Below the pieces are notes generated by a model. It did not search any database and had not been told where the DNA came from. It saw only the letters and a list, made by a program, of their open reading frames with translations. A program made the translations under genes and the position numbers. Shown here piece by piece: positions 1 through 15,359 of a DNA stretch of 15,359 nucleotides. Origin of the DNA: a virus. Positions within the stretch are counted from its first letter, which is position 1, and every line of letters begins with the position of its first letter. The stretch lies in UHGV virus genome UHGV-1915822, one strand, 5' to 3'.

Positions 1-47
1 ACACAGCTGTTACACTGTATGCGCTCCAAGAAAAGGAAGTGAGGAAA

Positions 48-215
48 TCAAAAGTTTTTAGCGATTATTTTTACTAATGTATAACCGTTGTCGAGATAGT
101 CTTGAATAGCTTCATAGAATACCTCCCAAGATTCATAAGTTTCATTTAAGCAAACAGGGATCAATGAATCTTTTTCTTGTGTGTAAAGTAGCGCTGATGC
201 GTGGATTTGTTTCAT
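48..215 (-). CDS. hypothetical small acidic protein (55 aa), divergently transcribed from the early region
   Basis: Manually reverse-complemented ORF, below the 60-aa cutoff of the supplied track: MKQIHASALLYTQEKDSLIPVCLNETYESWEVFYEAIQDYLDNGYTLVKIIAKNF. ATG is at plus 213-215, stop at plus 48-50. An AAAGGTGG ribosome-binding site lies 9 nt upstream on the minus strand, and a sigma-A-like promoter lies upstream at plus 251-279. No recognisable domain. Confidence 0.35.
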   Translation of the reverse strand: MKQIHASALLYTQEKDSLIPVCLNETYESWEVFYEAIQDYLDNGYTLVKIIAKNF

Positions 216-250
216 ATAAGGGTGCCACCTTTCATATATTTTATGGTTAT

Positions 251-279
251 AGTATAGCAGGAAATATGCATAATGTCAA
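251..279 (-). promoter_or_regulatory. sigma-A-type promoter on the minus strand (TTGACA, 17-bp spacer, TG-extended TATACT)
   Basis: The reverse complement of plus 251-279 reads TTGACA-TTATGCATATTTCCTGC-TATACT. The spacer ends in TGC, giving a TGn extended -10. It is positioned about 35 nt upstream of the minus-strand ORF start at 215. Confidence 0.45.
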
Positions 280-312
280 TAGAAATACAGAAAGTTTTAT
301 AAAAATAAATAT

Positions 313-361
313 AAAATATTTTGAAAAAAGTATTGACAAAAGTTTTGAAAAAAGTTATAAT
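313..361 (+). promoter_or_regulatory. consensus sigma-A-type early promoter (TTGACA-N17-TATAAT) with AT-rich upstream palindrome
   Basis: -35 TTGACA at 333-338, exact 17-bp spacer, -10 TATAAT at 356-361. A 10-bp palindrome AAAATATTTT sits at 313-322 in the UP-element position. The first well-supported plus-strand gene starts at 389. Confidence 0.55.
319..355. repeat. two exact 13-bp direct repeats TTTTGAAAAAAGT bracketing the -35 hexamer (candidate operator)
   Basis: Exact copies at 319-331 and 343-355, 24 bp apart, on either side of TTGACA (333-338). Read directly from the sequence. Confidence 0.7.
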
Positions 362-388
362 ATAATCAAAGAAAAGGAGGGAATAAAT

Positions 389-589: not shown

Positions 590-591
590 AA

Positions 592-765: not shown

Positions 766-768
766 TCG

Positions 769-1193: not shown

Positions 1194-1194
1194 T

Positions 1195-1602
1195 ATGGAA
1201 AACAATATTGTCATGTTTAACCCGGATTTGGAGAATGGTATGTACACTTCTTTAGATTTGGAGACCAAAGAAGGTAAAGCAAAAGCTATGAAGGCCATGA
1301 GTCGTTGCGACTATTCTTTATCGAAAATGGTAAATAAACAGGTTGTTGTTAAAGATATTTTTCTTCAGCCGGTTGAGGTAAAGGATAAAGAAACAGGTGA
1401 AGTGCGGGAATTGATTCGTACTGTTTTATTTGATCCGGAGGGTAAAAGCTATTATTCATTGTCGGCTGGATTTGTACGGCAAGTAAAATTGCTGTTGTCG
1501 ATTTATGGACAGCCGTCGGAATGGGAGGAGCCGATTACGATTTCGATTCGGCAAGATGAATTACCCGATGGAAAACGTACTTTTTCATTTGATGTATTGT
1601 AG
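1195..1602 (+). CDS. phi29 p5-like single-stranded DNA-binding protein
   Basis: ATG at 1195 directly after the upstream stop (1191-1193), GGAGG at 1181-1185. This is track ORF 1162..1602 trimmed to the start with a ribosome-binding site. N-terminus MENNIV and C-terminus KRTFSFDVL resemble recalled phi29 p5 (MENTNIV ... NVFFSLQLSL). Size is 135 aa. Confidence 0.55.
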   Translation: MENNIVMFNPDLENGMYTSLDLETKEGKAKAMKAMSRCDYSLSKMVNKQVVVKDIFLQPVEVKDKETGEVRELIRTVLFDPEGKSYYSLSAGFVRQVKLLLSIYGQPSEWEEPITISIRQDELPDGKRTFSFDVL

Positions 1603-1612: not shown

Positions 1613-1638
1613 GGGGAGGTAAAAACTCCCCTTTCTTT
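1613..1638 (+). terminator. intrinsic-terminator-like hairpin (GGGGAG / CTCCCC stem, 7-nt loop, T-rich tail)
   Basis: Stem 1613-1618 pairs with 1626-1631, loop GTAAAAA, followed by TTTCTTTAT. It sits between the SSB stop (1602) and the next start (1641). Confidence 0.5.
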
Positions 1639-1640: not shown

Positions 1641-1949
1641 ATGAGAGATTTATACATGGATTTAAAAAGAAGTCCTCATAAAATTCAGAGTAAAAACGGT
1701 ATTTTGTTTTATTTTTCTTCACAAAAGAGATGTACAAAATTTTGTGATGTGATATCAGCTTTTTGCGAGGATGAAGCGCATAAAATGAGTAATCGATATA
1801 AAATTTATATTGATTTTACAATTTTATATGAAATTATGCTGTATATGCAAATTGAGAAATACGGATTTTATATAGAATATAAGGGGGATGCGTTTACATG
1901 CCCAACGCAGGTAAAGTTAGATGGAGAGAAGCTGACGAAGCTAAGTTAA
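1641..1949 (+). CDS. phi29 p4-like transcriptional regulator
   Basis: 102 aa. ILFYFSSQKRCTKF and MLYMQIEKYGFYIEYKGD resemble the phi29 p4 segments VTFFFSSELYLNKF and FYSEVEKRGFHAWLKGD as I recall them. It sits between the SSB and terminal protein genes, as gene 4 does in phi29. The 3-prime end overlaps the terminal protein gene by 52 nt in another frame. The nearest SD (GGAGG 1606-1610) is 30 nt upstream, separated from the ATG by the hairpin. Confidence 0.45.
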   Translation: MRDLYMDLKRSPHKIQSKNGILFYFSSQKRCTKFCDVISAFCEDEAHKMSNRYKIYIDFTILYEIMLYMQIEKYGFYIEYKGDAFTCPTQVKLDGEKLTKLS

Positions 1950-2623
1950 AAAATCTGGTTAAGCGTTTTAATGCAAAGGTTGCCCGAAATGTAAAAAAGG
2001 GTGGGTTGATTGCGGAGGTACAACCAGCACCAATAAAAACAGCCGAATTGCGGGAAACATTAAAAGCAATTAGCAGGCGGGATGTAAATTATAGCTTCCA
2101 AAAGCTGGAAAATTATTTGCGTAAGGGTGCAGAGATGCCATATACGACTAAGAAGGGTGTAAATACAACCGTATGGCAGAAAAAGGAAATTGACAGGGCA
2201 ATAAGAACGATTAACGCCAGAAACAGGCAAGAATTATCGGATTATGAAATTGGGCCATATAAAGGAAATATTGGGACGATTGAAAGAAGTAATATGCGTC
2301 CGAGAAAGAACAGAGTGCAAACGCTTGAGCCTAAAGATTGGGACAGATATGTGGAAAGGCTGGATCGGCAGGTTTATGCTACGAATATCAGTGCAAAGAG
2401 CGCAAGATATAAAGAAAATTTTTTAAAAGCGATTGAAACTACCTTCGGGTCTAACTCAAAGCTATATCAAGCGATTCGTAAAATACCCCCTGAAATGTTG
2501 CATGAATATTATTATACTGATCCAATTTTAACCGTTCAATTTGTATCTGATCCACGTGAAGCCGAAGAAATACAACGTAGGATGTTAGACCGATTAGATG
2601 AAGAAGGTTTACTTCTTGAGTGA
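1898..2623 (+). CDS. terminal protein (protein primer for DNA replication)
   Basis: 241 aa. N-terminus MPNAGKVRWREADEAKLKNLVKRFNAKVARNVKKGG aligns residue-for-residue in length with the recalled phi29 TP N-terminus MARSPRIRIKDNDKAEYARLVKNTKAKIARTKKKYG. Ribosome-binding site AAGGGGG (1881-1887). It is immediately upstream of the polymerase, and its stop overlaps the polymerase GTG start (GTGA). Confidence 0.8.
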   Translation: MPNAGKVRWREADEAKLKNLVKRFNAKVARNVKKGGLIAEVQPAPIKTAELRETLKAISRRDVNYSFQKLENYLRKGAEMPYTTKKGVNTTVWQKKEIDRAIRTINARNRQELSDYEIGPYKGNIGTIERSNMRPRKNRVQTLEPKDWDRYVERLDRQVYATNISAKSARYKENFLKAIETTFGSNSKLYQAIRKIPPEMLHEYYYTDPILTVQFVSDPREAEEIQRRMLDRLDEEGLLLE

Positions 2624-4299
2624 GATATTGCGCTGATTTTGAGACGATCAACGATAAAGATGATTGTCGGGTTTGGGCTTGGTGGATTTCTGAAATTGAC
2701 AATGAAGAAAACAGCGAAAAAGGAAATGACATTGACAGTTTTATGTCCTCTTTATTTATGTATTGCGGGGATACCGTGTATTTTCATAATTTAAAGTTTG
2801 ATGGTGAATTTATTTTAAATTGGCTTTTTAGGAATGGATATACGCATATTCGAGATACGAAATTTAGTAAGGAAAAAACTTTTACTACGTTAATTAGTGA
2901 TACAGGTGCATTTTATTCCATGAAGATTTGTTTTCTTATGCAGGATAAAAAGCCTTTATTTGTAACCATTATTGATAGCTTGAAGATTATTCCTTTAAGT
3001 ATTCGGCAAATGGCTAAGGCGTTCGGATTAGAAGTGTCAAAGGGAGAGATTGATTATAATGCCTTTCGGCCTGTTGGGTATGAACCCAGTGTGGAGGAAT
3101 GGGATTATATCAAGCGTGATGTATATATTGCTTGCCGGGCATTAAGTGTTTTGTTTAATCAGGGGTTAAAAAAGATTACGCAAGCCAGTAATGCAATGGC
3201 CGATTATAAAAAGACGATTCCGAAGAAATTTAGCCGTTGGTTTCCAAAGATTGCGTATGATGCAGATATTCGTAGGAGTTATAGAGGAGGGTTCACTTAT
3301 TTAAACCCAAAGTTTAAGGATATGGACTTAGGTGAGGGCATTGTATTAGATGTAAATAGTTTATATCCTTCTGTTATGTATTATGAGCGTTTACCGTATG
3401 GGGAGCCTATTGCTTTTGAAGGCGAGTACAAGCCGGATGATTTATATGATTTATACGTTCAAAAATTTGCGTGTCAATTTGAATTGAAGAAGGGAAAAAT
3501 TCCTACCGTACAATTAAAGAACAATTTGAGCTTTGTGCCGACGGAATATTTAACATCGTCAGGCGACCAATATGTAACGATGTATATGACGAATGTAGAT
3601 TTAAAATTATTTTTAGAAAATTACGATGTGTATGATCTGGATTATCATAGAGGCTGGAAATTTAAAAGCGCTGAAGGTTTATTTAAAGAATATATTGATA
3701 AATGGATGAAAATAAAGATTGAAAGTGATGGCGTGAATCCGGGTATGAGGCAATTAGCGAAGCTCATGTTAAATGCTTTATATGGTAAATTTGGATTAAA
3801 CCCTGAAATACGAAGTAAAATTCCTTATTTGGACGAAGGGATTATTAAATATCAAACGGTAAAGGAAGAAGATCGAGATCCAATATATATTCCGATGGCT
3901 TCTTTTATCACCAGTTATGCCAGAAATAAAACGATACGATCTGCGCAATCGGTATATGATCGTTTTGTGTATGCAGATACAGACAGCTTGCATTTATTGG
4001 GTTTTGATTATCCTGAGGGGCTGGATATTGACGCGCACCGGTTGGGGGCATGGAAGCCTGAAAGTCGTTTTCATCGTGCCCGTTTTTTACGCCAGAAATG
4101 CTATATTGAGGATGAATTGGATAAAGACGATCAAGCTAAAGGGTTAAAGATTGTGTGCTCAGGCTTACCGGAAGAATGCTATGGGCAGGTGAATTGGGAT
4201 AATTTTCATTATGGGGTGACGTACGAAGGTAAATTGTTCCCTTATCATGCAAAAGGGGGAATCGTATTGACAGAGGGAGAGTTCACCTTAAGGAAATAG
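2620..4299 (+). CDS. protein-primed family B DNA polymerase (phi29-type)
   Basis: 559 aa. Exo I motif in YCADFETIND, Exo II YFHNLKFDGEFIL, motif A DVNSLYPS, motif B KLMLNALYGKF, motif C YADTDS, and KxY in LRQKCY. All closely parallel phi29 DNA polymerase. GTG start at 2620. Confidence 0.95.
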   Translation: MRYCADFETINDKDDCRVWAWWISEIDNEENSEKGNDIDSFMSSLFMYCGDTVYFHNLKFDGEFILNWLFRNGYTHIRDTKFSKEKTFTTLISDTGAFYSMKICFLMQDKKPLFVTIIDSLKIIPLSIRQMAKAFGLEVSKGEIDYNAFRPVGYEPSVEEWDYIKRDVYIACRALSVLFNQGLKKITQASNAMADYKKTIPKKFSRWFPKIAYDADIRRSYRGGFTYLNPKFKDMDLGEGIVLDVNSLYPSVMYYERLPYGEPIAFEGEYKPDDLYDLYVQKFACQFELKKGKIPTVQLKNNLSFVPTEYLTSSGDQYVTMYMTNVDLKLFLENYDVYDLDYHRGWKFKSAEGLFKEYIDKWMKIKIESDGVNPGMRQLAKLMLNALYGKFGLNPEIRSKIPYLDEGIIKYQTVKEEDRDPIYIPMASFITSYARNKTIRSAQSVYDRFVYADTDSLHLLGFDYPEGLDIDAHRLGAWKPESRFHRARFLRQKCYIEDELDKDDQAKGLKIVCSGLPEECYGQVNWDNFHYGVTYEGKLFPYHAKGGIVLTEGEFTLRK

Positions 4300-4328
4300 T
4301 TTACAATTTGTGTAAAAAAGTATATAAT
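4300..4328 (+). promoter_or_regulatory. sigma-A-type promoter upstream of the packaging ATPase gene (TTTACA-N17-TATAAT)
   Basis: TTTACA at 4300-4305 immediately after the polymerase stop, 17-bp spacer, TATAAT at 4323-4328. Confidence 0.5.
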
Positions 4329-4464
4329 AATATTGAGAAGGTAAGACGGAAAAACGGATCAAATGCTGTTATGGGTGCCACTGATGAAAGATTCAGCCAT
4401 AAAGCCGTGGGAGTGGTTTCTATTTGGTTTGTGCCGTTTTATCTTTTCTTTTTTAGGTGGTTTT

Positions 4465-5487
4465 ATGGGTAAATATTGGGACATCGGAAAAATTTTGAGT
4501 TATCAGCGTAATTTTAATTTTATCAATGGCGAACGATCAATAGGAAAAACCTACACGACGGAGAAGTTTTTTATTGAAAAAGCGATTAAAACAGGAAAAG
4601 AATTCGTGTATATTACTCGTACACAGGACGAAAAACGGAACGGAATATTTAAAGAAGCATTCAGCAAAGTAATATCGCGAGAATTTCCCGACAAAGAGAT
4701 TATTTTCACAAATGACGAATGTCTATTAAAAATTGCCGAATACAAAAGATGCTTAGGATATTGTATTGCATTAAGTGAAGCGTTAAAGATAAAGAAACGT
4801 TCTTTCCCGAATGTGTATTATTTAATGTTTGATGAATATATGCTGGAAAATAAAGGTTTAACCCGTTATGTAAATGGATGGAAGGAGCCGGAATTATTTT
4901 TATCTATTTATCATACCATTGACCGTGAAGAAGATCGCGTTATTTGTTTTTTATTGGGGAATAATACAACTTTTTATAACCCGTATCATATGCATCCTGC
5001 GTTTCAAATTCCCCATATAAAAAAGGGACAAATATGGTCAGGGGAGAACGTTCTTTTTCAATGGGCTGAAGGCACAGAAGAATTACGGGAAGAAAAAGCG
5101 AATTGTAAGTTCTTAAAAATGCTGAACGATACTACATATGGTAAATATGCGGTAAAAGGCGACTATATAGAAGATTCTGACGAATTTATTGAAAAAAGAA
5201 GCGCAGAAGCAAGAGTTAGCTTTAATATTGAATATATGGGAAATACCTATGGCATATGGAATGATATGAAGCATGGCCGAATTTACATTGATACAAAAAC
5301 AGACCCGGATTGTACCTTAAATTATGCTTTAACCTTAGAGGATCATAGTGAAAATACCATGTTGACATCAACGAAATCAATCTCTTGTTTAAATTGGCTT
5401 TCTCAAAATTTTAAACTGGGGAATGTTCGTTTTGTTTCTATGGAAGTAAAAAAGATGTGCGAGGGAGCCATCAATCTGATTTTATAG
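4465..5487 (+). CDS. DNA encapsidation (packaging) ATPase, phi29 gp16-like
   Basis: Walker A GERSIGKT and Walker B YYLMFDEY. ILSYQRNFNFINGERSIGKTY parallels phi29 gp16 MLSYDRILNFVIGARGIGKSY. I chose the ATG at 4465 (AGGTGG at 4455-4460) because it places Walker A at the same distance from the N-terminus as in phi29. The track's longest ORF starts at 4363 without a ribosome-binding site and adds a hydrophobic 34-aa extension, so the start is uncertain. Confidence 0.85.
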   Translation: MGKYWDIGKILSYQRNFNFINGERSIGKTYTTEKFFIEKAIKTGKEFVYITRTQDEKRNGIFKEAFSKVISREFPDKEIIFTNDECLLKIAEYKRCLGYCIALSEALKIKKRSFPNVYYLMFDEYMLENKGLTRYVNGWKEPELFLSIYHTIDREEDRVICFLLGNNTTFYNPYHMHPAFQIPHIKKGQIWSGENVLFQWAEGTEELREEKANCKFLKMLNDTTYGKYAVKGDYIEDSDEFIEKRSAEARVSFNIEYMGNTYGIWNDMKHGRIYIDTKTDPDCTLNYALTLEDHSENTMLTSTKSISCLNWLSQNFKLGNVRFVSMEVKKMCEGAINLIL

Positions 5488-5498
5488 GGGTTGATGAA

Positions 5499-5750
5499 AT
5501 GGATGTAAATACTGCGATTCAGTTAATTAACGGTGTAGGATTTCCCATTTTTGCGTGTATTGCTATGGGGGTGTTTGTTGTTTGGGACAAGAAAACCCGG
5601 AAAGACACGGAAGAAAAGCAACAAGATAAGCAGGAAAAGGTTTTAGAAAATATTACAACGGCTTTAAATCAAAATACTTTGGTTATTCAAAAGCTGGTAG
5701 ATAAGCTGGGAGGCGTAGACGATGCAAAAACTGACATTACCGGTAAATAA
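5499..5750 (+). CDS. small single-TM membrane protein, holin-like candidate
   Basis: ATG at 5499 with AGGGG 9 nt upstream; the track ORF starts at an in-frame GTG at 5457 overlapping the ATPase end. One hydrophobic segment GVGFPIFACIAMGVFVVW is followed by a highly charged tail KKTRKDTEEKQQDKQEK. It lies directly upstream of, and overlaps, the M23 peptidase gene. Confidence 0.4.
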   Translation: MDVNTAIQLINGVGFPIFACIAMGVFVVWDKKTRKDTEEKQQDKQEKVLENITTALNQNTLVIQKLVDKLGGVDDAKTDITGK

Positions 5751-6471
5751 TTGCGGAGTTACCTGCGGGTATAAAAATCAGAATTATCGGAATTATTGGG
5801 GATTTGGACATTACGGCGTTGACTATGTGTCCGATAGTCTTGTTCTCTATGCTTTAGGAAACGGCGAGGTGTTGATGAAAGGATGGGATAATCTTTTTGG
5901 CAACATCATTATTATTAAATACCCTGAGGTATATAATCATGCCACGGGTGAAGTAAAAGATTTAATTTGCCGTATGTATCACATGGCGAGTGAAAGTCCT
6001 TGTGAAGTTGGGTATCAAGTAAGCAGAGGAGAAAGCATTGGCATTATGGGGACGACAGGCCAATACTCTAGTGGTGTTCATGTCCATATTGAATTTGATA
6101 CCGACACGAAATATTATAATTACGGAGTTCCGTTGGCTAAGGATTCCAACCTGATTAAAAAGGGTGTGGATTCTACGGTTGATCCTTCGGACATTCTTTA
6201 TGTAGGTTCTAACCAGAGAGTTTACAATAATTCTCTAAATGGGTGGGCAACGGATAAAGAATTAAATTTGCCCTTATTGGACGAAGAACCCGAAAAACCA
6301 AAAGATCCCGAAATGAGTGAAGAATTGAAAAAACAACTGGATGAATTAGCATCCCGTGTTTCTAAAAATGAAAAAGATATATCGGATCTTTACACAGGAA
6401 TGGCGAAGAACGATGAATTTCGTGAAAATATGTTGAAAGCAATGGAGGCGGTTATAAATGGCTCTAACTAG
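5722..6471 (+). CDS. M23 family zinc metallopeptidase (peptidoglycan endopeptidase), virion-associated lysin or endolysin
   Basis: 249 aa. Contains HYGVD (HxxxD) and GTTGQYSSGVHVHIE (HxH), the hallmark LytM/M23 zinc-ligand motifs. Ribosome-binding site GGGAGG (5708-5713). The C-terminal ~100 aa is a charged coiled-coil-like region with no recognisable cell-wall-binding domain. Confidence 0.85.
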   Translation: MQKLTLPVNNCGVTCGYKNQNYRNYWGFGHYGVDYVSDSLVLYALGNGEVLMKGWDNLFGNIIIIKYPEVYNHATGEVKDLICRMYHMASESPCEVGYQVSRGESIGIMGTTGQYSSGVHVHIEFDTDTKYYNYGVPLAKDSNLIKKGVDSTVDPSDILYVGSNQRVYNNSLNGWATDKELNLPLLDEEPEKPKDPEMSEELKKQLDELASRVSKNEKDISDLYTGMAKNDEFRENMLKAMEAVINGSN

Positions 6472-6829
6472 AGACGAATATATGCAAATTTTAGAGCGCA
6501 TCAGTGAAACCGGCGGTTTTACGGAAGCTATGCTCGATGATTTGCAGAAGCTAAAAGACGATTACGATGAACGGGAAGGGATGCTGAAAGTCGAGGATGA
6601 AGCATCGGATAAAACCGTATATACGGATGATCAGGTGTATGATACCGACGGAGTAAGCTGGAGAGATAAATACGACGATATGAAGCGCCGGTATAAAGCA
6701 AGATTCTTTTCTACTCCTCTTGAAGCTAAAGAAGAGCAGATAGAAGATATTGCATCAGACAGCGACAGCACAACCCGTACCTATGAGGAAATTTTTGAAA
6801 CAAGAGAGGGAGATTATAATGCCGACTAA
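6458..6829 (+). CDS. putative head scaffolding protein
   Basis: 123 aa, highly acidic and helix-prone (rich in D/E/K/R), GGAGG at 6444-6448. It sits immediately upstream of the major capsid gene and overlaps it, as scaffold gene 7 does in phi29. No direct sequence match recalled, so the call rests on position and composition. Confidence 0.5.
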   Translation: MALTRDEYMQILERISETGGFTEAMLDDLQKLKDDYDEREGMLKVEDEASDKTVYTDDQVYDTDGVSWRDKYDDMKRRYKARFFSTPLEAKEEQIEDIASDSDSTTRTYEEIFETREGDYNAD

Positions 6830-8119: not shown

Positions 8120-8149
8120 GGGGAGCTTTTCGCTCCCCTTTTTTCTTTT
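8120..8149 (+). terminator. rho-independent terminator after the capsid gene
   Basis: Stem GGGGAGC (8120-8126) pairs with GCTCCCC (8132-8138), 5-nt loop, then TTTTTTCTTTT. Confidence 0.8.
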
Positions 8150-8166: not shown

Positions 8167-9804
8167 ATGGAAATTATACCGAATGGAGTTGTAAGGCTAT
8201 GCGCGAATATCCCTTGGGATCCTACCTATAGCGATGTTCGGAAATTTAACAGCGTAGGAGAGCAAACCTCATATATAGCAGGGAAAGCGATTAAAACCTA
8301 TAATAATGTATCCTACCAACGTCCGACATCTAGTGTAGCCCCTCCACGGCCTGCCTTTACCTGCGCTGTACCCGATGTAGCCGATGATCTTTATAACTGT
8401 AACTATATTATGTTTCAAAATACAAATTTCGGCTCAAAATGGTTTTACGGTTTTGTCCGACAGGTAAATTATGTAAACCCGAATTGTACCCATATTGTAT
8501 ATGAAATAGACCAATATCAAACTTGGTGTTTTGATTACGAAGTATTACCGTCTTATGTAGAGAGGGAACACGCCGAAACCGATGAATTATATGAAAACCT
8601 ACAGCCTGAACCGTTTACAGGGTTAGAGACCATTGTAACGGATATTCAAACCGTGCGTCCCAATGGGGGTAGCCCCGATTATAAGATTGTGGTTTGCACA
8701 AACGCTGTTCCGGAAACAGGAGAACCCTCTCCCGGTCAGGTTATTGATAACGTATATTCAGGACTTACCTTTACAGAGTTTTCAGCCAGTGACGGCGGAG
8801 CCGCCGCAAACAATTTTATAAAAGGCTTCAGTGCAGGAACATGGGATCGAATTTTAGATGGGGAAATCCCCTATTTAAGAGCAAGGATTGATGCCATTAT
8901 CAGTATTTTTATGTCACCTTATTCTGTTGTATCTCCCCCAACAAACGACACCGTGACCTTAGAACGGCCTACTACGTTAAATGGTTACGAGCCCAAAAAT
9001 AAAAAAATGCTTACCTATCCGTATTGTTGTTTGGATGTATCGAATAACTGTGGACAAACAAGAACATACTTATACGAAAAATTTACAACGGGAACATCTG
9101 TGTTTCCTATTGAATTCAATCAATATTATACCGCAGGATTTAACCCGACGATTGTTTCATTACCCTCGTTTTATGATAGTGATACAACCGTACAAGGACG
9201 GGGTAACGCAGATATGGCTATTCAGCTTTCAACCTTCCCAGTATGTGGGTGGAGCGGAGACGCTTTCAGCGATTGGCTAAATAATGAATATCAATCAAAA
9301 CAAAGCGGGATTTTATCGAATTTAGCAATCGGTATTGCCGGTGTGTTATTATCAGCAGGAACAGGAGGGGTAGCCGGTACAGCTTTAGCAGTAGGGGCAG
9401 GCAGGGAATTATTAAGCGGTATTTCCGAAGGTGCTTCGTTAGGAAGAGAAAAACAACTTCGTTCACAATCACAGGGTGCTACAATGGCAACCCCGTTAAA
9501 TAGTAGCTTTAATTTCAAAACAGACAGTGTAGGCATCACCTATAAACAAAAAGCTATCCGTGCGGAAATGGCCGAAGCGATTGATAGCTATTTTGATATG
9601 TATGGCTATGCGACTAACAAGGTCAAGGTGCCGAATGAGGATAGCCGCCCGTCATGGAATTATGTAAAATGCGATAATGTCATCATTCACGGCTCATGCC
9701 CGGTTGAAGCCATTACCACGATAAAAACCCTTTATAATAACGGCGTTCGTTTTTGGCATACCGACAGCGTGGGAAACTTTGCTTTATATAATGGGGTGGA
9801 ATAA
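8167..9804 (+). CDS. tail knob protein (phi29 gp9-like)
   Basis: 545 aa. YIMFQNTNFGSKWFYGFV parallels phi29 gp9 YIMFQNADYGNKWFYAFV, and C-terminal RFWHTDSVGNF parallels TLWHTDNIGNY. Ribosome-binding site AAAGGGTGA. Confidence 0.85.
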   Translation: MEIIPNGVVRLCANIPWDPTYSDVRKFNSVGEQTSYIAGKAIKTYNNVSYQRPTSSVAPPRPAFTCAVPDVADDLYNCNYIMFQNTNFGSKWFYGFVRQVNYVNPNCTHIVYEIDQYQTWCFDYEVLPSYVEREHAETDELYENLQPEPFTGLETIVTDIQTVRPNGGSPDYKIVVCTNAVPETGEPSPGQVIDNVYSGLTFTEFSASDGGAAANNFIKGFSAGTWDRILDGEIPYLRARIDAIISIFMSPYSVVSPPTNDTVTLERPTTLNGYEPKNKKMLTYPYCCLDVSNNCGQTRTYLYEKFTTGTSVFPIEFNQYYTAGFNPTIVSLPSFYDSDTTVQGRGNADMAIQLSTFPVCGWSGDAFSDWLNNEYQSKQSGILSNLAIGIAGVLLSAGTGGVAGTALAVGAGRELLSGISEGASLGREKQLRSQSQGATMATPLNSSFNFKTDSVGITYKQKAIRAEMAEAIDSYFDMYGYATNKVKVPNEDSRPSWNYVKCDNVIIHGSCPVEAITTIKTLYNNGVRFWHTDSVGNFALYNGVE

Positions 9805-10706
9805 TGGATTGTATGAAATTATTTGGACATAAACCTCCTAAAAAATACGCGCATTTGATTATGAATCACCGTACGTTTTGGGATTACTATTACCGTTTAT
9901 TGGGATTAAGCGTAAATTTATTTGAATGGAAAAATATACCCGATACCATTGACCCCAGATTTCTGGAGCTTACCTTGATTGAACGCGGATATGCAGTATA
10001 CTTTAATGATGAAGTATTAGGGGATCTTGCATTACCCTGTAGGATTGGTACTCCTTTAAATGTATATCGGATACCTGTTAGAAGAACTGCCTACTCGGTA
10101 AATGGATATAATAAGGATCTTACCATAGAAAATTCGGTTATGATCTTTAATAATTATCTGCACACTCCTTCTGTAGAAACAATCCTTCTTTTTGCCGGAA
10201 GATTGGCCGAAATTGAACGAACAATCGATGTAAATGTAAAAGCGCAAAAAACGCCTGTCACAATTCTTTGCGAACCACAGCAGGAATTTACCTTTAAAAA
10301 CTTTTACAACAAGGTGTCAGAAAATGAGCCGGTTATTATCGGAAACGCGCAAGGGTTTTCATTAGACAGCGTAAAGGTTCTGAATACCGCTTCTCCCTAT
10401 GTAGGCGACAAGCTCAATATTTTAAAGCGTCAAATATGGAATGAAGCGCTAACCTTCCTTGGGATTGAAAATGTTTCAAGTGATAAGAAAGAAAGGCTTG
10501 TCAGTGATGAAGTAGAAACCAACCTTGGCGCAGTAGCCGCGCAACGCTATACCCTTTTAAATTCCCGCAGAGAAGCAGCAGAAAAGATCAATAAAATGTT
10601 CGGTACGAATATTGAAGTAAACTTTAGGGCTGAAACGAGAACAGAGGAAAGAATTGCAGATTTACCCGAAAACGAGTATAATGGTTATAGAGAGGAAGTG
10701 GAATAA
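9804..10706 (+). CDS. portal / upper collar connector protein (phi29 gp10-like)
   Basis: 300 aa. LFEWKNIPDTIDPRFLE, KAQKTPVTIL and KKERLVSDEV parallel phi29 gp10 LFEWENLPPTINPSFLE, NAQKTPVLIR and KKERMVTDEV. TAATG overlap with the tail knob stop. Confidence 0.85.
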   Translation: MDCMKLFGHKPPKKYAHLIMNHRTFWDYYYRLLGLSVNLFEWKNIPDTIDPRFLELTLIERGYAVYFNDEVLGDLALPCRIGTPLNVYRIPVRRTAYSVNGYNKDLTIENSVMIFNNYLHTPSVETILLFAGRLAEIERTIDVNVKAQKTPVTILCEPQQEFTFKNFYNKVSENEPVIIGNAQGFSLDSVKVLNTASPYVGDKLNILKRQIWNEALTFLGIENVSSDKKERLVSDEVETNLGAVAAQRYTLLNSRREAAEKINKMFGTNIEVNFRAETRTEERIADLPENEYNGYREEVE

Positions 10707-11731
10707 TGGCCGAATATAGCATTGAATTAGGTACATTAGTAAAAATGGGCTATCCGCTTGCTCTTAATGATTACCCGATCTTTCGCGAAGATTACCGGGA
10801 AATACTAAACCGAAAAATTATCGATCACTTCTATTTCCGTGAAATTGGTTTTGAAACGCCCGACCGTTTTAATCATTTCCTCCATATGGTGATGCATGAA
10901 AACATGCCGTATTTCAACCAATTATATGAGAGTGAATTCTTAAAGTTTGACCCTCTCAGCACGGACTATTTTGAAGAGGTATCGGAGGATGTAACGAACA
11001 ATATAAAAGCGGGCAGACGGGACAACACACACACCCAAACCGAAACCACCGGTGACAGGTATACTTCGTTACATTCTCTCGATTCCTCCATCAACGTTGT
11101 TGGTAATGTATCCGACAAGGGAAATATTAACGATACCGAGAACATTACTTCAAAATCAACCCAAACGAATGATTTGACTACACAGGTAAATTCAAGCAGT
11201 CAAGGTGACGGAACACAAGACACGACCGGAAGCAGAACCAAATATTTTTCCGATATGCCGCAAACCGCAATTACCAATACCACAACGGTTAATCCCGATG
11301 GAAGCGTCACCTATTCTACAAACGGTTATGCAACCACCATGGAAACGGAAAGCACAGCCCAGCACGATGTTACCCATACCGAGGAAACGGGGCAATCTAC
11401 ATCGACCAATACCGGCACTATTGTCACCGAGGGAGAAAGCGACCGAACCTATGGAAGAACAACCACAAATACAACCGATGAAACCAACGATAGAACCCAA
11501 AAAGACACCCAACACGAAGATACACAACGCAATATCCTGAACAATTTGTCTTTCTTAGACAATGCGGTCAATAGCGAGGCAACCGATGAAACAAGAAAAA
11601 GTAAAAATGCTCGGAAAGGGCGCTCCGGCGTTTCTCCTTCTTCCCTTATTCAGGAATATCGGAATACGTTTTTAAATATTGATAAACAGGTTATTGCAAG
11701 CCTCGAAAATTTATTTATGGGGGTATTCTAA
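10706..11731 (+). CDS. lower collar protein (phi29 gp11-like) with long polar low-complexity insert
   Basis: 341 aa. Position between portal and appendage genes matches gene 11 in phi29. TAATG overlaps on both sides. The central ~170 aa is T/S/N/D/E/Q-rich low complexity. Confidence 0.6.
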   Translation: MAEYSIELGTLVKMGYPLALNDYPIFREDYREILNRKIIDHFYFREIGFETPDRFNHFLHMVMHENMPYFNQLYESEFLKFDPLSTDYFEEVSEDVTNNIKAGRRDNTHTQTETTGDRYTSLHSLDSSINVVGNVSDKGNINDTENITSKSTQTNDLTTQVNSSSQGDGTQDTTGSRTKYFSDMPQTAITNTTTVNPDGSVTYSTNGYATTMETESTAQHDVTHTEETGQSTSTNTGTIVTEGESDRTYGRTTTNTTDETNDRTQKDTQHEDTQRNILNNLSFLDNAVNSEATDETRKSKNARKGRSGVSPSSLIQEYRNTFLNIDKQVIASLENLFMGVF

Positions 11732-14700
11732 TGTACGATTGCAACAAAAAGCCTTGCACTCCACCTCCTGTGGATCCATGCGAGCATCACCATCCTTGTG
11801 GCCCGGATTTTCCGAATTTTTGCCCTCCTCCTGCTCCCCACCCTGCCCCTTATCAGCCTCCTTGCCCATCCGTTGCGGAGGGCTCTTCGCTATATGAGGC
11901 CGTCAACAATCTGACGAATCGCGTCAACACCTGTATGGCAACCTATAACGATGTAATGGCAAACTGCTATAAAACACTTCACAATCTGGAATGCGCGGCA
12001 CAGGAAAACGGGGCATATTATGATTGCCATGAGGTATGGACAGAAACCGGTTATCAGCCGGACGAAAGCGCAACCTATACCATTATTCATAAAGCCGTTG
12101 TCGACCGACGCGGTGAGCCGATCCGTATGCAATTACATCTTGCTTATGGAAATACGACTAATTCGCAGATTACCCAAAACTTATTTTCTGCATCCGAAGT
12201 AACGCTGGCAGACAAAATTGTCCCGGCTATTCCTCTTACCGGTACAGGCTGGTATGGTAATGCGATTATAAACGGTTGCCCGATTCCTTCAACCGAAGCC
12301 TCTACCTATTATACAGTTGGCTTTACGAAAAAAGGTGTAATGCGCTATTACCCGAATTCGGTATCGGTTGATCAAATGTTAAAGGATACCATTGAGAATG
12401 CCATGGGGTGCTCAGGCGTTCTCATTATCAACAGCCAGATTGCAAATGATGCATTCTTTGAGCATATCCCGAACGCTACCGAACAAAAAGCACGTATCGT
12501 TATGGGCCAAAACTACGATACCCGCGAGGTCATGATTCTCGTATGCGGACAGGAAAACAATGTTGATAAAAAAGGTCTCACTTCTAAAGCGTGCGCCGAA
12601 ATTCTTCTTCAGTATGGTTGTGACATCGCCGTGGAGCTTTCCGAAGGTGACAGCGCAGGAGCATGTGACAAAGGGCAACTGATGTTCGTCCCCGACAATA
12701 ACAATGTGCCGGAGACTTACGCATTCTGGTATATCTCCCGCAAATGCTTCTATTGCAATGATTACCAGCGTGAACTCGCAAAGCTCATGCAGAATTATGG
12801 AACTTGTCTTTGGCAAACATATTTGAATAAAAAGAAAATCGAACAGCTTCGGGAGGATTTGAATACCGAAATCACAAATCGCGAGGATGCCGATCAGGTA
12901 TTGCAAAACCAAATCCTCGAAGAAGTCGATAATCGCGTTAAAGCTGACGAAGTATTGCAAAACCAAATCCTTGCAGAGGTCGATAACCGCGTTAAAGCAG
13001 ACGAAGTATTACAAAACCAAATCCTCGCGGAAGTGGACAACAGAGTTAACGCAGATAATGTCCTGCAAAACCAGATCCTTACGGAAGTAGACGCGAGAAA
13101 AAATGCAGACGATGTTTTACAAAATCAAATCCTTGAGGAAGTAAAAAATAGAGAAAACGCAGATAACACCCTGCAAGAACAAATCCTTACCGAAACAAAC
13201 GCAAGAATCGATGCGGATGAATCCCTGCAAAATCAAATTATTACCGAAACAAACGCCCGTGTCGCGTATGATGAAAACTTACAAGCACAAATTACAAAAG
13301 AAGTAACCGATAGAACAAATGCGGATGCTACCCTGCATCAAGAAATATTAACCGAACAAGGCGAAAGAATCGCCGCAGATGAAGTTCTTCAAAGAAATAT
13401 CAACGAAGAAGCCGCTACTAGAGCAGAAGAAGATACAAAACTACAAGGTAATATTGATGCAGAAACAACCGCCAGACAAGAAGCAGATGCCACCCTGCAA
13501 TCGAATATCGACGCATTGGCACAAAGAGTAACCGTCCTTGAAACGGATGTCGATCAGCTTCAAACCCTCTATAATTCCTTGCAGGAACAAACCGCCGCAA
13601 TGGATACAGCCATTACTTCCATTCAGCAAACGATTGCTTCTATTGAAACTTCTCTGAATAATGTAAAAACCTCTATCGACAATATCACCAACGGTACAAC
13701 ACTCCTGCCGTATTTGCCGATCAAAGGCGGTACAATGCAAGGTTCCATCAACATGAATAATAAATCGATTACCAATGTTCCTTCTCCTTCAGCAGACGGC
13801 GACGCGGTAAACAAAAAATATGTTGATGACGCGATTGCAGGTGGTATTACTCCTCCAACAGGCGACTATCTCCCCTTATCCGGCGGTACCATGACGGGAA
13901 ACATCAACATGAATAACAACCGTGTAACCTCTGTAGGAGCGCCCAGCGCAGGTACAGATGCAGTAAATAAAGACTATGTTGATGATGAAATCGCAACCGC
14001 AGGAGATGGAAAATTCCTTCCGTTGGCAGGTGGCGCATTAACCGGCGCAGTTACTACTACCGAAACTGAATTTGAAAATAATGAGCTTGTTACAAAATCG
14101 TATGTAGATGGACAGGTTGCAACCGCTGGAAATGGAAAATTCCTTCCATTAGCAGGTGGAACCATGACCGGGGCAATCAACATGGGTAATCAGAAAGTAA
14201 CAGCGGTCGCTACGCCTACTACAGGCACCGATGCTACCAATAAAACCTATGTGGATAACGCCATTTCTACTGCCGGAAATGGAAAATTCCTGCCGTTAGC
14301 AGGCGGAACTATGACCGGAGCAATCAATATGGGTAATCAAAAAGTAACAGCAGTCGCCACCCCGACAGATGGCTCAGATGCCGCAAATAAACAATATGTT
14401 GATCAAGCTGTTGCCGGTTCGTCTTATACGCTGCCTGCCGCTACTACTACTACACTTGGAGGTGTAAAGGTTGGAGAAGGTTTGTCCGTTACCGCGGATG
14501 GCACGTTGTCGGCTACGGGTGGAAGCACAGATATTCCCATTGCAAGCGATACCGTTCTTGGTGGAATTAAAGTCGGGGAATCACTTTCTATTGAAGCTGA
14601 CGGTACTTTAAGCGTTGTTGCATCCGATAATCCTACTACTCCGCGAATGCCTGTTAATAAAGAGTATGTCGATAATCAGCTCGACAATTTTGTAGCAAAA

Positions 14701-15318
14701 ACTGGCGATACTATGACAGGGCATTTATCAATGAGCAATCGATCAAACGTTAAAATTTTAGATGATGACGATGAACCTGTTGCAAGTCTTGGTTATCTGT
14801 TTGGCGTTACAAAACCTAGAGGAATTATATCTTTCTTAAAAAACCCGGGCACCATCAATAACCTATTTAATGAAAATTATCTTGCTACGTATGCCTTAAA
14901 TCAACGAGAAGCTGTAAACTATGTAGGACGTACATTCAAATTCGGTGGAACCTTTACGGGAGGAGCATATAACTGTGTTGCTACACATTTAGGATTTGAA
15001 GATCCTAATGGTAAGGCTTCCAGATATGCAAATGTCAAATTAGATATTGACATCTATTGCTTAACTCCTATTACGACTGCTCCTTCCTTTGCCTTCAATC
15101 TACCAACTTCTATTTTTACGGTAAGAACTGGAACTATCACAGACGAAATATGGAAATTTACATACGCAGATAATGTATATTTGAATATTACTGCTCAAGA
15201 AGGTGGTACTATTATTTGTAAATTTGGAGGTTCACCTGCCGTTGGTAGGCATATTTCTGCTACGATTATACCTTATCAGCTTGCTTGGAGTATTGATCCG
15301 GCTATCAATCTTCATTAA
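11731..15318 (+). CDS. pre-neck appendage / tail fibre protein (gp12-position), multidomain
   Basis: 1195 aa at the gene-12 position. Contains a Cys/Pro/His-rich N-terminus, an N-terminal globular region of ~280 aa, about 15 tandem 14-aa repeats, five phage tail-fibre-type repeats (LPLAGGTMTG...NK.YVD), two GG-VKVGE-DGTLS repeats, and a distinct C-terminal domain. Confidence 0.85.
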   Translation: MYDCNKKPCTPPPVDPCEHHHPCGPDFPNFCPPPAPHPAPYQPPCPSVAEGSSLYEAVNNLTNRVNTCMATYNDVMANCYKTLHNLECAAQENGAYYDCHEVWTETGYQPDESATYTIIHKAVVDRRGEPIRMQLHLAYGNTTNSQITQNLFSASEVTLADKIVPAIPLTGTGWYGNAIINGCPIPSTEASTYYTVGFTKKGVMRYYPNSVSVDQMLKDTIENAMGCSGVLIINSQIANDAFFEHIPNATEQKARIVMGQNYDTREVMILVCGQENNVDKKGLTSKACAEILLQYGCDIAVELSEGDSAGACDKGQLMFVPDNNNVPETYAFWYISRKCFYCNDYQRELAKLMQNYGTCLWQTYLNKKKIEQLREDLNTEITNREDADQVLQNQILEEVDNRVKADEVLQNQILAEVDNRVKADEVLQNQILAEVDNRVNADNVLQNQILTEVDARKNADDVLQNQILEEVKNRENADNTLQEQILTETNARIDADESLQNQIITETNARVAYDENLQAQITKEVTDRTNADATLHQEILTEQGERIAADEVLQRNINEEAATRAEEDTKLQGNIDAETTARQEADATLQSNIDALAQRVTVLETDVDQLQTLYNSLQEQTAAMDTAITSIQQTIASIETSLNNVKTSIDNITNGTTLLPYLPIKGGTMQGSINMNNKSITNVPSPSADGDAVNKKYVDDAIAGGITPPTGDYLPLSGGTMTGNINMNNNRVTSVGAPSAGTDAVNKDYVDDEIATAGDGKFLPLAGGALTGAVTTTETEFENNELVTKSYVDGQVATAGNGKFLPLAGGTMTGAINMGNQKVTAVATPTTGTDATNKTYVDNAISTAGNGKFLPLAGGTMTGAINMGNQKVTAVATPTDGSDAANKQYVDQAVAGSSYTLPAATTTTLGGVKVGEGLSVTADGTLSATGGSTDIPIASDTVLGGIKVGESLSIEADGTLSVVASDNPTTPRMPVNKEYVDNQLDNFVAKTGDTMTGHLSMSNRSNVKILDDDDEPVASLGYLFGVTKPRGIISFLKNPGTINNLFNENYLATYALNQREAVNYVGRTFKFGGTFTGGAYNCVATHLGFEDPNGKASRYANVKLDIDIYCLTPITTAPSFAFNLPTSIFTVRTGTITDEIWKFTYADNVYLNITAQEGGTIICKFGGSPAVGRHISATIIPYQLAWSIDPAINLH
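12868..13530 (+). repeat. tandem 42-bp (14-codon) repeats, about 15 units, inside the appendage gene
   Basis: Unit consensus at protein level is roughly N-R-x-x-A-D-x-x-L-Q-N-Q-I-L-x-E-V-D. Adjacent DNA units are near-identical, for example GTATTGCAAAACCAAATCCT recurs at 42-bp spacing. Confidence 0.8.
13711..14420 (+). repeat. five tail-fibre repeat units of 126-147 bp; the last two are near-identical 147-bp direct repeats
   Basis: Protein units LP(L/I)xGGTMxG.INM.N..VT.V..P....DA.NK.YVD. The DNA copies beginning near 14125 and 14272 are almost identical over about 147 bp. Confidence 0.8.
14431..14620 (+). repeat. two ~30-codon repeats (T-LGG-KVGE-L-ADGTLS)
   Basis: LPAATTTTLGGVKVGEGLSVTADGTLSA followed by IPIASDTVLGGIKVGESLSIEADGTLSV. 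Confidence 0.7.
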
Positions 15319-15359
15319 CACTCCTTTCTTTACAAGCGCTGGCAGATGCAGCTCTGTCG

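Follow-up and report, generated by a model that had tools for sequence, protein, structure and literature searches.

A pRNA-like structured RNA gene ahead of the packaging ATPase gene in an uncultivated phi29-like phage

Introduction

The viral genome UHGV-1915822, a 15,359-nt stretch of DNA analysed in full and referred to here as the window, carries an interval at 4300-4465, between the polymerase gene and the packaging ATPase gene, that might pass for empty and that an initial annotation had flagged as a possible chimeric joint. This raises the question of whether the interval is a product of assembly or a working part of the genome. No other stretch of the window is as informative: it holds a promoter followed by a structured RNA. 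Packaging RNAs of the phi29 type have so far been described mainly for Bacillus phages. The best explanation, to which a probability of roughly 0.7 is assigned as a whole, is that the window represents the near-complete linear genome of an uncultivated phi29-like podophage and that the RNA, to judge from its shape and context, would be this phage's counterpart of the prohead (packaging) RNA, or pRNA, of phi29. The host is probably a gut clostridium. What the analysis adds is a previously unannotated, pRNA-shaped RNA gene in a gut phi29-like phage.

Gene content of the window

The gene identities in Table 1 rest on Pfam and PHROGs profiles, tblastn with phi29 proteins and gene calls in relatives, and they confirm the initial classification as a phi29-like protein-primed podophage. 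On the plus strand the order is SSB, p4, terminal protein, polymerase, ATPase, holin, M23 peptidase, scaffold, capsid, knob, portal, collar and fibre. All supported genes lie on this strand, as had been proposed, save one 55-codon ORF at the left end, which is the only ORF of the other strand also called by independent gene callers and has no Pfam or PHROG match. The three small early ORFs have no family match either; for the first of them, callers also offer a longer 107-aa form starting at 266. The polymerase and the ATPase are 44% and 31% identical to phi29 gp2 and gp16 respectively, and the p4-like gene is also matched by tblastn with phi29 gp4. The terminal-protein call is marginal (Pfam 25.9 bits against a cutoff of 25), the holin-like protein has a weak BhlA holin match and the protein in the scaffold position has no Pfam or PHROGs family match. 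The lower collar protein contains a long Ser/Thr/Asn/Asp-rich insert, such that phi29 gp11 matches its N and C termini only, and the fibre gene contains tandem repeats of 54 nt and 147 nt. The promoter at 333 is flanked by 12-nt tandem repeats (TTTTGAAAAAAG x3.2, 319-354).

Table 1. Features of the window with their positions and the basis of each assignment.
Feature	Position	Strand	Basis
Divergent left-end ORF, 55 codons	48..215	-	ORF list; 55-aa gene call in independent contigs L042, L043, L046
Promoter-like site for divergent ORF, TTGACA-17-TATACT, TG-extended	251..279	-	Consensus scan, 11/12
Perfect sigma-70-type promoter, TTGACA-17-TATAAT, presumed early	333..361	+	Consensus scan, 12/12
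Small early ORF, 66 aa	389..589	+	RBS AAGGAGG at 374-380; called in L042, L043, L046
Small early ORF, 57 aa	592..765	+	ORF list; gene calls in relatives
Small early ORF, 84 aa	939..1193	+	ORF list; gene calls in relatives
Single-stranded DNA-binding protein (SSB), phi29 gp5-like	1195..1602	+	PF17427 Phi29_Phage_SSB, E 2.2e-10; 135-aa call in relatives
Terminator-like hairpin and U run, between SSB and p4 genes	1613..1631	+	Consensus scan
phi29 p4-like late-transcription activator	1641..1949 (alternative start 1656)	+	PF05464 Phi-29_GP4, E 3.6e-11; phrog_10365, 1.5e-10
Terminal protein, phi29 gp3-like	1898..2623	+	PF05435 Phi-29_GP3, E 8.7e-6; directly upstream of, and overlapping, polymerase gene
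Protein-primed family B DNA polymerase	2620..4299	+	PF03175 DNA_pol_B_2, E 2e-73
Promoter, TTTACA-17-TATAAT	4300..4328	+	Consensus scan, 11/12; -10 box ends 9 nt before RNA
pRNA-like structured RNA gene, ~108 nt	4338..4445	+	Fold, covariance model, covariation; closing helix may reach 4335-4448, U run after
gp16-type DNA-packaging ATPase	4465..5487	+	PF05894 Podovirus_Gp16, E 2.8e-47
Small one-pass membrane protein, holin-like	5457..5750 (possible starts 5457, 5493, 5499)	+	phrog_4898 holin, 5.5e-8
M23 peptidase: endolysin or phi29 gp13-like cell-wall hydrolase	5722..6471	+	PF01551 Peptidase_M23, 1.3e-11; phrog_3578 endolysin, 5.5e-20
Acidic 123-aa protein, scaffold by position only	6458..6829	+	Kept upstream of capsid gene in relatives
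Major capsid protein, C-terminal Ig-like domain	6819..8111	+	PF25622 Phi29_MCP, 3e-106, plus Big_2; 430-aa call in relatives
Bidirectional terminator-like hairpin after capsid gene	8120..8138	.	Consensus scan; 7 pairs, 6 G-C; U runs both strands
Tail knob, phi29 gp9-like	8167..9804	+	PF16838, PF20934
Portal / upper collar connector, phi29 gp10-like	9804..10706	+	PF05352 Phage_connector, 8.5e-68
Lower collar, phi29 gp11-like	10706..11731	+	phrog_3225 adaptor Ad4, 3.8e-26
Tail fibre / appendage, 1195 aa, internal repeats	11731..15318	+	Tail-fibre PHROGs; place of phi29 gene 12

The overlapping or abutting gene junctions noted in the initial annotation were found (end/start 589/592, 1193/1195, 1949/1898, 2623/2620, 5750/5722, 6471/6458, 6829/6819, 9804/9804, 10706/10706 and 11731/11731). 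Long polycistronic transcripts had been proposed from these tight junctions, but the picture of one long uninterrupted transcript is broken by the terminator-like hairpins behind the SSB and capsid genes and by the internal promoter at 4300.

Structure and conservation of the RNA

The RNA combines a bulged closing helix and a three-way junction with a C helix that carries a 6-nt bulge and with E and D hairpins, a topology that agrees element for element with the consensus line of the Rfam phage pRNA family (RF00044 Phage_pRNA). The region folds at -39.8 kcal/mol (z -4.3); the minimum-energy fold is 2.8 kcal/mol more stable than the canonical three-way junction, no more than about 3 pairs form the D hairpin, and one of the 4 pairs in the loop-loop duplex is G-U. 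A covariance model (R1), built solely from 8 RNAs of other phages with a different layout, returned 4338-4445 as its top match in the window (28.6 bits, E 1.3e-4), together with syntenic matches in four relatives (L038, L004, L019 and L034) and in the Clostridium phage CI55P1. A further model (R2) matches RNAs outside its own training set in L033 and L032 at E about 1e-8, and gave no RNA match in the cultured Clostridium phage CS229P2. In all 18 representative loci, window included, a promoter (10-12/12) ends 6-11 nt upstream of the RNA, and in most of them a U-rich stretch lies downstream. Among genomes that are 93-95% identical overall, the RNA region is 98-100% conserved.

In alignments fitted to the model structure, 90.4% of helix cells pair across 7 diverse sequences, against 40-47% when the partners are slid, with compensatory change in 37 of the 38 pairs; across 24 distinct sequences the values are 91.1% and 38-49%. 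The pairing between the bulge and the D loop was not included in R1 or R2, and in one fixed register 81.7% of it is retained, compared with 7-57% in shifted registers (permutation p = 1e-4), with double changes at 3 of its 5 loop-loop pairs. From the window to its closest relative (L004) the two loops change together, GCCA/UGGU becoming GCUA/UAGC. Nevertheless, RF00044 gave no match in the window, even when a 181-nt slice of it was searched at E<=10, whereas phi29 scores 145 bits, and R2 produced only a mis-registered 10-bit match on phi29 pRNA; common descent with phi29 pRNA is thus not supported.

A role in packaging or in cis

The perfect promoter at 333 stands ahead of the small early ORFs and the replication block (SSB, p4-like regulator, terminal protein and polymerase), and a second, near-consensus promoter at 4300 starts the structured RNA of about 108 nt. 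In a packaging role, copies of this RNA would assemble into a ring, through pairing of the 6-nt bulge GUGCCA with the D-hairpin loop GUGGUU, and the ring would attach to the prohead portal and keep the ATPase in place while DNA is packaged.

It could be argued instead that the RNA works in cis, as a 5' leader or attenuator that times the expression of the ATPase and late genes, its closing helix and U run terminating or gating transcription from the 4300 promoter or occluding the ribosome-binding site. In most loci the RNA does end 10-35 nt ahead of the ribosome-binding site of the next gene, the U residues behind the closing helix resemble an intrinsic terminator, and no promoter of the ATPase gene's own shows up in a consensus scan. 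However, a cis-acting leader in place of a trans-acting packaging RNA is judged unlikely. In L006, L031, L032, L033 and L029 the RNA seems to be followed directly by a gene other than that of the ATPase, which starts 210-640 nt downstream, and so the RNA is not simply an ATPase leader; four of these loci (L006, L029, L031 and L032) do have a ribosome-binding site or start codon close behind it. In the Clostridium phage phiCPV4 the related element is far from the ATPase gene. Furthermore, a three-way junction that carries two conserved 6-nt loops is more than a terminator requires, and covariation between the bulge and the D loop keeps to one register, as in the ring-forming loops of phi29 pRNA. 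The cis and packaging roles are compatible, and the one does not exclude the other.

Gene order

The phi29 map given in the initial annotation is correct, and the window does differ from it in having a replication block co-directional with the late genes, ATPase and lysis genes ahead of the head genes, and no head-fibre gene: no ORF lies between the capsid end at 8111 and the knob start at 8167, and phi29 gp8.5 has no tblastn match in the window at E<=0.01. From these differences, and with no close cultured relative (in the phage collection, capsid identity reaches at most 48%), the layout might be regarded as a notable and previously unseen reorganisation of the phi29 plan, as had been suggested. 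This is very improbable. The same layout is present in 8 IMG/VR contigs and in the RefSeq Clostridium phages CI55P1 and CI461P1, Streptococcus phage Cp-1 is likewise co-directional, the Guelinviridae place the ATPase gene after the polymerase gene, and gene rearrangements are frequent among phi29-like phages according to a 2024 review (PMC11476376). Given that the order is in substance already known, the layout is not unusual; it can be called standard in a described genus only loosely, since the cultured Clostridium phages have no ICTV genus. Two other layouts occur in relatives, at about 30 further loci. In summary, the window has a genuine, reproducibly assembled layout, one of at least three within its clade and one that cultured Clostridium phages have too.

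Coding potential and integrity of the interval

The stretch 4363-4464 could also be read as the coding N terminus of a 374-aa ATPase, with the RNA structure incidental: the ATG at 4363, previously taken as the start, is in frame with the ATPase gene, and automatic 374-aa calls are found in L042, L043 and L046. This reading is very improbable, as the Pfam match and all homologues begin at the methionine at 4465, to which the start is corrected. In addition, 1- and 2-nt indels fall in a U run between 4363 and 4465 in near-identical genomes, for which callers give 340 aa, and substitutions among relatives keep base pairs, not codons.

With respect to the ends, the inverted terminal repeat sought in the window was not found there but is present in sister contigs: L043 carries a perfect 30-nt repeat just outside the window ends, and compared with a 99.3%-identical contig the window is short by about 27 nt on the left and 53 nt on the right, this repeat included. 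Relatives also have inverted terminal repeats, and the phage would replicate by protein priming from its own. Two independent assemblies (L042 and L043) are 99.2-99.3% identical to the window and collinear over all 15,359 bases, 4 further contigs are collinear across 4300-4465 or across both flagged joints, and 23 public contigs share one identical portal protein. The proposal that the contig is chimeric or circularly permuted, its order an artefact of joins at 1600-1650 and 4300-4465, draws on the absent terminal repeat and on both joins being non-coding gaps, but is excluded, given that contigs of different samples and assemblers (ENA ERZ26120531, Logan SRR21311688, SRR13837328, ERZ24930576, ERZ7982266, SRR35113941) run collinear through one or both gaps, that the terminal repeats lie immediately beyond the window ends, that the order is common to more distant relatives and cultured phages, and that both gaps contain recognisable signals, the one a terminator-like hairpin, the other the promoter and conserved RNA.

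Comparison with known systems

The closest non-identical relative found, L004 (IMGVR_UViG_3300045988_113851), is fully syntenic on the same strand, with proteins 38-67% identical, and has the RNA directly upstream of the ATPase gene with the E loop UGAAAGAU of the window; it differs in about 650 extra bases between polymerase and RNA and in a separate terminator hairpin after the RNA. CI55P1 (NC_073482) and CI461P1 (NC_073481), cultured Clostridium gut phages placed among unclassified Caudoviricetes, have the one-strand order of the window: a terminal-protein-like gene, the polymerase, a gap of about 150 nt, the ATPase, small genes, an M23 'morphogenesis protein', a scaffold-position gene, capsid, knob, portal and collar. 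Their gap holds the same RNA (R2 72-73 bits; CI55P1 4767-4868, CI461P1 9915-10016), yet their proteins are only 24-46% identical to those of the window (polymerase 46%, capsid 40%, ATPase 30%). Their genomes are 14.2-14.6 kb, with five divergent small genes at one end compared with one in the window, and tblastn detected no p4-like gene in them.

In phiCPV4 (Guelinviridae, Brucesealvirus) the ATPase gene directly follows the polymerase gene, as in the window, and a pRNA-like element (R2 22.3 bits) has a bulge GCCA facing a D loop UGGC; unlike in the window, the structural genes converge on the opposite strand and the RNA lies upstream of the scaffold-position gene. An element similar to the window RNA is present, unannotated, in Clostridium perfringens phages. 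Cp-1 (Cepunavirus) runs co-directionally through terminal protein, polymerase, scaffold, capsid, connector, collar, tail, ATPase and lysis genes, apart from a few genes on the reverse strand at one end; its ATPase and lysis genes close the late operon in phi29 style, unlike those of the window, and R2 found no RNA in it.

Bacillus phage phi29 (Salasvirus) has homologues in the window of its SSB, p4, terminal protein, polymerase, capsid, knob, connector, lower collar and ATPase. As in phi29, the genes stand in the order 5-4-3-2, with the RNA gene behind them on the same strand, the overlap of genes 4 and 3 is mirrored by that of the p4-like and terminal-protein genes, and short inverted terminal repeats are shared. 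In contrast, the replication block and the late genes of phi29 are transcribed in opposite directions, and its late operon closes with genes 13-16, where the ATPase and lysis genes of the window follow the RNA; phi29 also has the head-fibre gene 8.5 and right-end early genes, and the window genome is 4 kb shorter. The phi29 RNA gene lies at the genome end, that of the window 20 nt upstream of the ATPase gene. Between the two RNAs there is no significant covariance-model score in either direction, the bulge has 9 nt in phi29 and 6 nt in the window, and the A-helix bulge of the window is not CCA. Nevertheless, both have a closing A helix bulged on its 5' side, a three-way junction, a C helix, a 5' bulge (the right-hand loop), an E helix of 4 bp with a loop of 6-8 nt and, after a short linker, a D hairpin (the left-hand loop); in both the two loops are complementary and covary, and the RNA gene has its own strong promoter in a genome that encodes a gp10 connector and a gp16 ATPase.

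Gene content and genome ends

The genes of the window form one tight row on the plus strand, as seen from the ORF map and the profile searches (table). The hallmark set of phi29-related protein-primed podophages consists of p8-p11, the polymerase and the gp16 terminase (PMC11476376), and all of these were identified: a family B protein-primed DNA polymerase (PF03175, E 2e-73; 44% identity to phi29 gp2), the capsid, tail knob, connector and lower collar proteins (PF25622, PF16838/PF20934, PF05352 and phrog_3225) and a gp16-type packaging ATPase, with PF05894 spanning the whole protein (E 2.8e-47). Searching the window with the phi29 proteins by tblastn gave matches for gp2, 4, 8, 9, 10, 11 and 16 and none for the head fibre gp8.5, and only 55 nt separate the capsid and knob genes, a space occupied by a terminator-like hairpin. 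Gene order, strands and the missing head-fibre gene are therefore as the initial annotation had claimed, with ORF map, profiles and tblastn in agreement, and the phi29 layout that it used for comparison matches the annotated phi29 record. Profile searches of the window found no further terminase-like ORF that might be a separate small terminase, and a tRNA scan found no tRNA.

Features of the window and the basis on which each was assigned
Feature	Position	Strand	Basis
55-codon ORF, sole opposite-strand gene	48-215	-	ORF map; independent gene callers agree
Small early ORFs	389-589, 592-765, 939-1193	+	ORF map
phi29-type SSB	1195-1602	+	Profile
p4-like late-transcription activator	1641-1949	+	Profile
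Terminal protein	1898-2623	+	Pfam, marginal (25.9 bits; cutoff 25)
Protein-primed polymerase	2620-4299	+	Profile
gp16-type ATPase	4465-5487	+	Profile
One-pass holin-like protein	5457-5750	+	Profile
M23 peptidase	5722-6471	+	Profile
Acidic scaffold-position protein	6458-6829	+	Position
phi29-type capsid protein with Ig-like tail	6819-8111	+	Profile
Tail knob	8167-9804	+	Profile
Portal	9804-10706	+	Profile
Lower collar	10706-11731	+	phrog_3225
1195-aa fibre	11731-15318	+	Profile

The hairpin between the capsid and knob genes (8120-8138; 7 pairs, 6/7 of them G-C) is strong and bidirectional and would favour an excess of capsid mRNA. The lower collar protein resembles phi29 gp11 at its two termini only; the ~200 residues between them are a low-complexity insert rich in Ser, Thr, Asn and Asp. 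The fibre has a Cys/Pro-rich N terminus, and its gene contains repeats at 12898-13194 and 14128-14403, comprising a 54-nt tandem repeat (18 residues, coiled-coil-like) and a 147-nt duplicated unit. Towards the left end, the 173-nt gap at 766-938 folds better than its shuffles (z -3.2), some callers propose a 39-codon hydrophobic ORF there (823-942), and similarity to the relatives L044-L046 (93-95% identical to the window) is lost or rearranged left of about 817. A perfect promoter at 333-361 and a minus-strand promoter at 279-251 point away from each other, and three tandem copies of the 12-nt unit TTTTGAAAAAAG, the middle one degenerate, straddle the -35 box of the former at 319-354. The p4-like regulator could use these repeats as an operator; p4-type operators at both promoters were considered and rejected, as neither AAAAAAGTWTATAAT nor TTTTGAAAAAAG occurs beyond chance outside its own sites.

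The initial annotation had raised the possibility of a chimeric assembly at two joints (1600-1650 and 4300-4465). An identical portal protein is encoded on 23 public contigs, and two sister contigs, L042 (15,562 nt, from ENA) and L043 (15,438 nt, from Logan), match the window collinearly over its full 15,359 bases at 99.2-99.3% identity, while the relatives L044-L047 (93-95% identity) are collinear wherever they cover the window, the flagged joints included. No terminal repeat turned up when the window was searched for inverted repeats; in L043 (99.3% identical), however, the same 30 nt stand at both ends (AATAAAATCACGCACAAAAAGAAGCGCACA) as a perfect repeat just beyond the window edges. Given that the window corresponds to L043 28-15385, it is without only the terminal repeats. 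Misassembly and circular permutation are excluded by the collinear independent contigs together with the L043 repeats, and the ends, as seen in L043, would fit a protein-primed linear genome. Terminal repeats of 39-160 nt are also present in more distant relatives; the apparent 160-nt repeat of L039 opens with the Nextera mosaic-end AGATGTGTATAAGAGACAG and is thus in part adapter. L042 has 110 extra bases (1-110) outside its left terminal-repeat copy. In two other relatives self-cleaving ribozyme motifs occur as pairs near a genome end: twister-P5 in L038 (15733-15789 and 16019-16075, minus strand; 48-55 bits, above the gathering score of 37.6) and type II hammerhead in L035 (771-834 and 1130-1193, plus strand; 35.5 and 37.3 bits, gathering score 37). 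No motif of these types was found in the window.

Gene order among relatives

The window proteins were placed by tblastn on 37 IMG/VR loci, found via the ATPase, and on three cultured phages, and three layouts emerged. In layout A all genes are co-directional, as in the window; it comprises the cultured Clostridium phages CI55P1 and CI461P1 and the contigs L004, L032, L035, L036, L038, L039 and L040, of which L004 is the closest relative (protein identity 38-67%). In layout B, found in the Hungatella phage CH17P1 and about 21 contigs, the block of replication genes, RNA and ATPase gene is inverted against the lysis and structural block. In layout C (nine contigs) the ATPase gene stands alone at the genome end; there the cassette of RNA and ATPase gene was seen in both orientations (L019 and L021-L027 versus L023) and seems to invert as a unit. 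The Clostridium phage CS229P2 has layout A with the ATPase gene alone flipped. Given that relatives have the same order and that gene rearrangements are frequent among phi29-like phages (2024 review, PMC11476376), the order of the window is a known arrangement. It is real, as the initial annotation had it, but ordinary for a group in which order is fluid, and in substance it is already standard among described Clostridium phages, although no ICTV genus exists for them. The gene order thus adds little beyond another member of a known, rearrangement-prone group whose close relatives have three coexisting layouts; a pRNA-like gene with counterparts in cultured phages matters more.

A predicted structured RNA gene upstream of the ATPase gene

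The stop codon of the polymerase gene directly adjoins a promoter, TTTACA-17-TATAAT (4300-4328; 11/12), followed from about 4335 by a 119-nt stretch that folds at -39.8 kcal/mol (z -4.3). Relatives have the same RNA design, in different sequences, ahead of their ATPase genes: an extended closing helix, bulged on its 5' side, leads to a three-way junction, from which arise a helix with a 6-nt 5' bulge and a 4-bp hairpin cap, and a second hairpin with a loop of ~6 nt. Eight layout-B RNAs were aligned, with compensatory change in 21 of 38 pairs, and the covariance model built from them (R1, run without filters) matches window 4338-4445 with 28.6 bits (E 1.3e-4; runner-up in the window 12 bits), as well as the syntenic sites in L038, L004, L019, L034 and CI55P1. 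When seven diverse sequences were aligned, 90.4% of cells pair against 40-47% with the partners slid, and 37 of the 38 pairs change on both sides. The model made from these seven (R2) gave 35 matches in 41 sources, all on the ATPase strand, including RNAs outside its training in L033 and L032 (E about 1e-8), L029 and L036. Across 24 distinct sequences 91.1% of cells pair, against 38-49% with slid partners. Since alignments of this kind are fitted to the model, the argument is carried by the slid controls and the untrained matches.

The bulge and the loop of the second hairpin (the D loop), whose pairing lies outside the models, are complementary in one fixed register, with 81.7% of cells paired against 7-57% in shifted registers. 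Double changes occur at three of the five positions (GC/AU, CG/UA and CG/UA). Permuting the loops among phages gave p = 1e-4 and a register-free comparison of cognate with non-cognate loops p = 5e-4. The loop pairs include CGUCA/UGACG, UGUCA/UGACA, ACCA/UGGU, GCUA/UAGC and UCCU/AGGA, with GCCA/UGGU in the window. The pairing is a prediction, and from sequence it would look the same within one molecule as between two. The 5'-side bulge of the closing A helix stands at a comparable position in all members and is not CCA, reading AAAA(A) in the window, where the D hairpin is weak and the fold of minimum energy is more stable than the canonical junction by 2.8 kcal/mol.

At all 18 representative loci, the window included, a promoter of 10-12/12 ends 6-11 nt before the RNA, and at most of them a U-rich stretch follows the closing helix. 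In L006, L031, L032, L033 and L029 the ATPase start is 210-640 nt downstream of the RNA, with a ribosome-binding site or start codon close after the RNA in four of the five, and in L004 the RNA stands about 650 nt away from the polymerase gene; these distances argue that the RNA is a unit of its own and not just a leader. The stretch from promoter to RNA is 98-100% conserved between genomes that are 93-95% identical overall, differing by one promoter-spacer substitution and by indels in the A run and the U run, and nothing else. These indels show that 4363-4464 is not coding. Automatic gene callers lengthen the ATPase gene to 374 aa by running it over the RNA gene in the window (4363-4464) and in L042, L043 and L046, a misannotation that likely recurs among these phages.

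Relation to the packaging RNA

Read from its structure and context, the RNA is a candidate counterpart of the packaging RNA, although it stays below the threshold of the Rfam pRNA family RF00044. First, the structure line of the model equals the RF00044 line on phi29, element for element, with a three-way junction whose A, C/E and D helices covary, as expected of a pRNA. Second, the right-hand (bulge) and left-hand (D) loops are complementary over at least 3 nt and covary, the feature by which the ring-forming loops of phi29 pRNA are recognised; the same loop complementarity serves as a criterion in the Guo laboratory (PMC12670572). Third, the window has genes for both putative protein partners, the connector and the gp16-type ATPase. 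The reading also draws on the promoter in front of the RNA, its separation from the ATPase gene in some relatives, its conservation and its place behind the polymerase gene. As a pRNA it would bind the prohead connector, recruit the ATPase and be needed to package DNA. Rfam scans of the window (E<=1) and of 4300-4480 and L038 5200-5380 (E<=10) gave neither pRNA nor any other credible family, while RF00044 scored 145 bits on phi29 as a positive control; R2 in turn found nothing credible in phi29, Cp-1 or CS229P2. Given that each model misses the other's RNA, family membership and common descent are unproven. A blastn search of 4300-4464 against 50,697 phage records returned no match. The Cp-1 PE3 leader (1005-1140), considered as a pRNA, was rejected because its fold is unlike pRNA.

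The helix and U run would also suit a role in cis, in which the RNA terminates or gates transcripts that start at the 4300 promoter. This role and one in trans, as a packaging RNA, may coexist.

R2 also matched the Clostridium phage phiCPV4 (NC_018083) at 16186-16287 on the minus strand with 22.3 bits (E 0.016 in 84 kb, 5e-5 locally). This unannotated element is intergenic, between a SpoVG-like gene and a scaffold-position gene, looks G+C-rich against its surroundings (57% G+C), and has the same three-way-junction fold, with the bulge GCCA opposite the D loop UGGC. Conservation is 92-100% across 17 records of C. perfringens podophages, where the element is almost never annotated; CPS2 and ZP2 carry few substitutions, compensatory ones among them. 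The element may be a packaging RNA of Guelinviridae, which is a lead and not a demonstration.

Comparison with known systems

The pRNA has been described as confined to phi29 and its relatives among the Bacillus phages (PMC11476376). In 2025 a structure-based search that started from phi29, GA1 and DLc1 added 12 new pRNAs, of which the named ones appear to come from Bacillus phages only (PMC12670572). For other phi29-like phages the one proposal is a Cp-1 pRNA of 1996, which a model of the Bacillus pRNAs could not recover (PMC6266182). Our literature search, short on subscription journals, found no report of pRNA in gut clostridial phages or Guelinviridae, so an earlier description is possible. 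Taken jointly, the observations suggest, with a probability of roughly 0.55, that packaging RNAs are not restricted to Bacillus phages: a large clade of phi29-like phages of gut clostridia, CI55P1, CI461P1 and CH17P1 among them, would encode a divergent class, invisible to the Rfam model, beside or near the ATPase gene, with a related form in the Guelinviridae of C. perfringens. On this view an RNA-scaffolded motor would go back to the ancestor of the phi29-like group, or would at least be widespread within it, and RNA and ATPase gene would form a cassette that stays together while modules invert around it. With candidates in cultured Clostridium phages, the use of an RNA by other phi29-like phages with the same ATPase and connector becomes directly testable. 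The clostridial RNAs also provide a set of new putative ring-forming loop pairs and three-way junctions, and flag the recurrent extension of the ATPase gene across the RNA gene.

Among the known systems, the gut Clostridium phages of the CI55P1/CI461P1 kind are collinear with the window (replication, RNA, ATPase, lysis, head, tail) at 24-46% protein identity, too low for the window to share a species or genus with them. In Cp-1 all these modules run in one direction and the ATPase gene comes last, and in phiCPV4 the polymerase gene is followed by the ATPase gene and the structural genes are convergent. Layout B resembles the divergent plan of phi29, but its ATPase gene moves with the replication genes. 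The window departs from the plan of phi29 and the genus Salasvirus in that its early and late operons are not divergent, the ATPase and lysis genes do not close a late operon, and there is no head fibre. Phi29 and the window are alike in the place of the RNA gene, which shares the strand of the polymerase gene and is found downstream of it.
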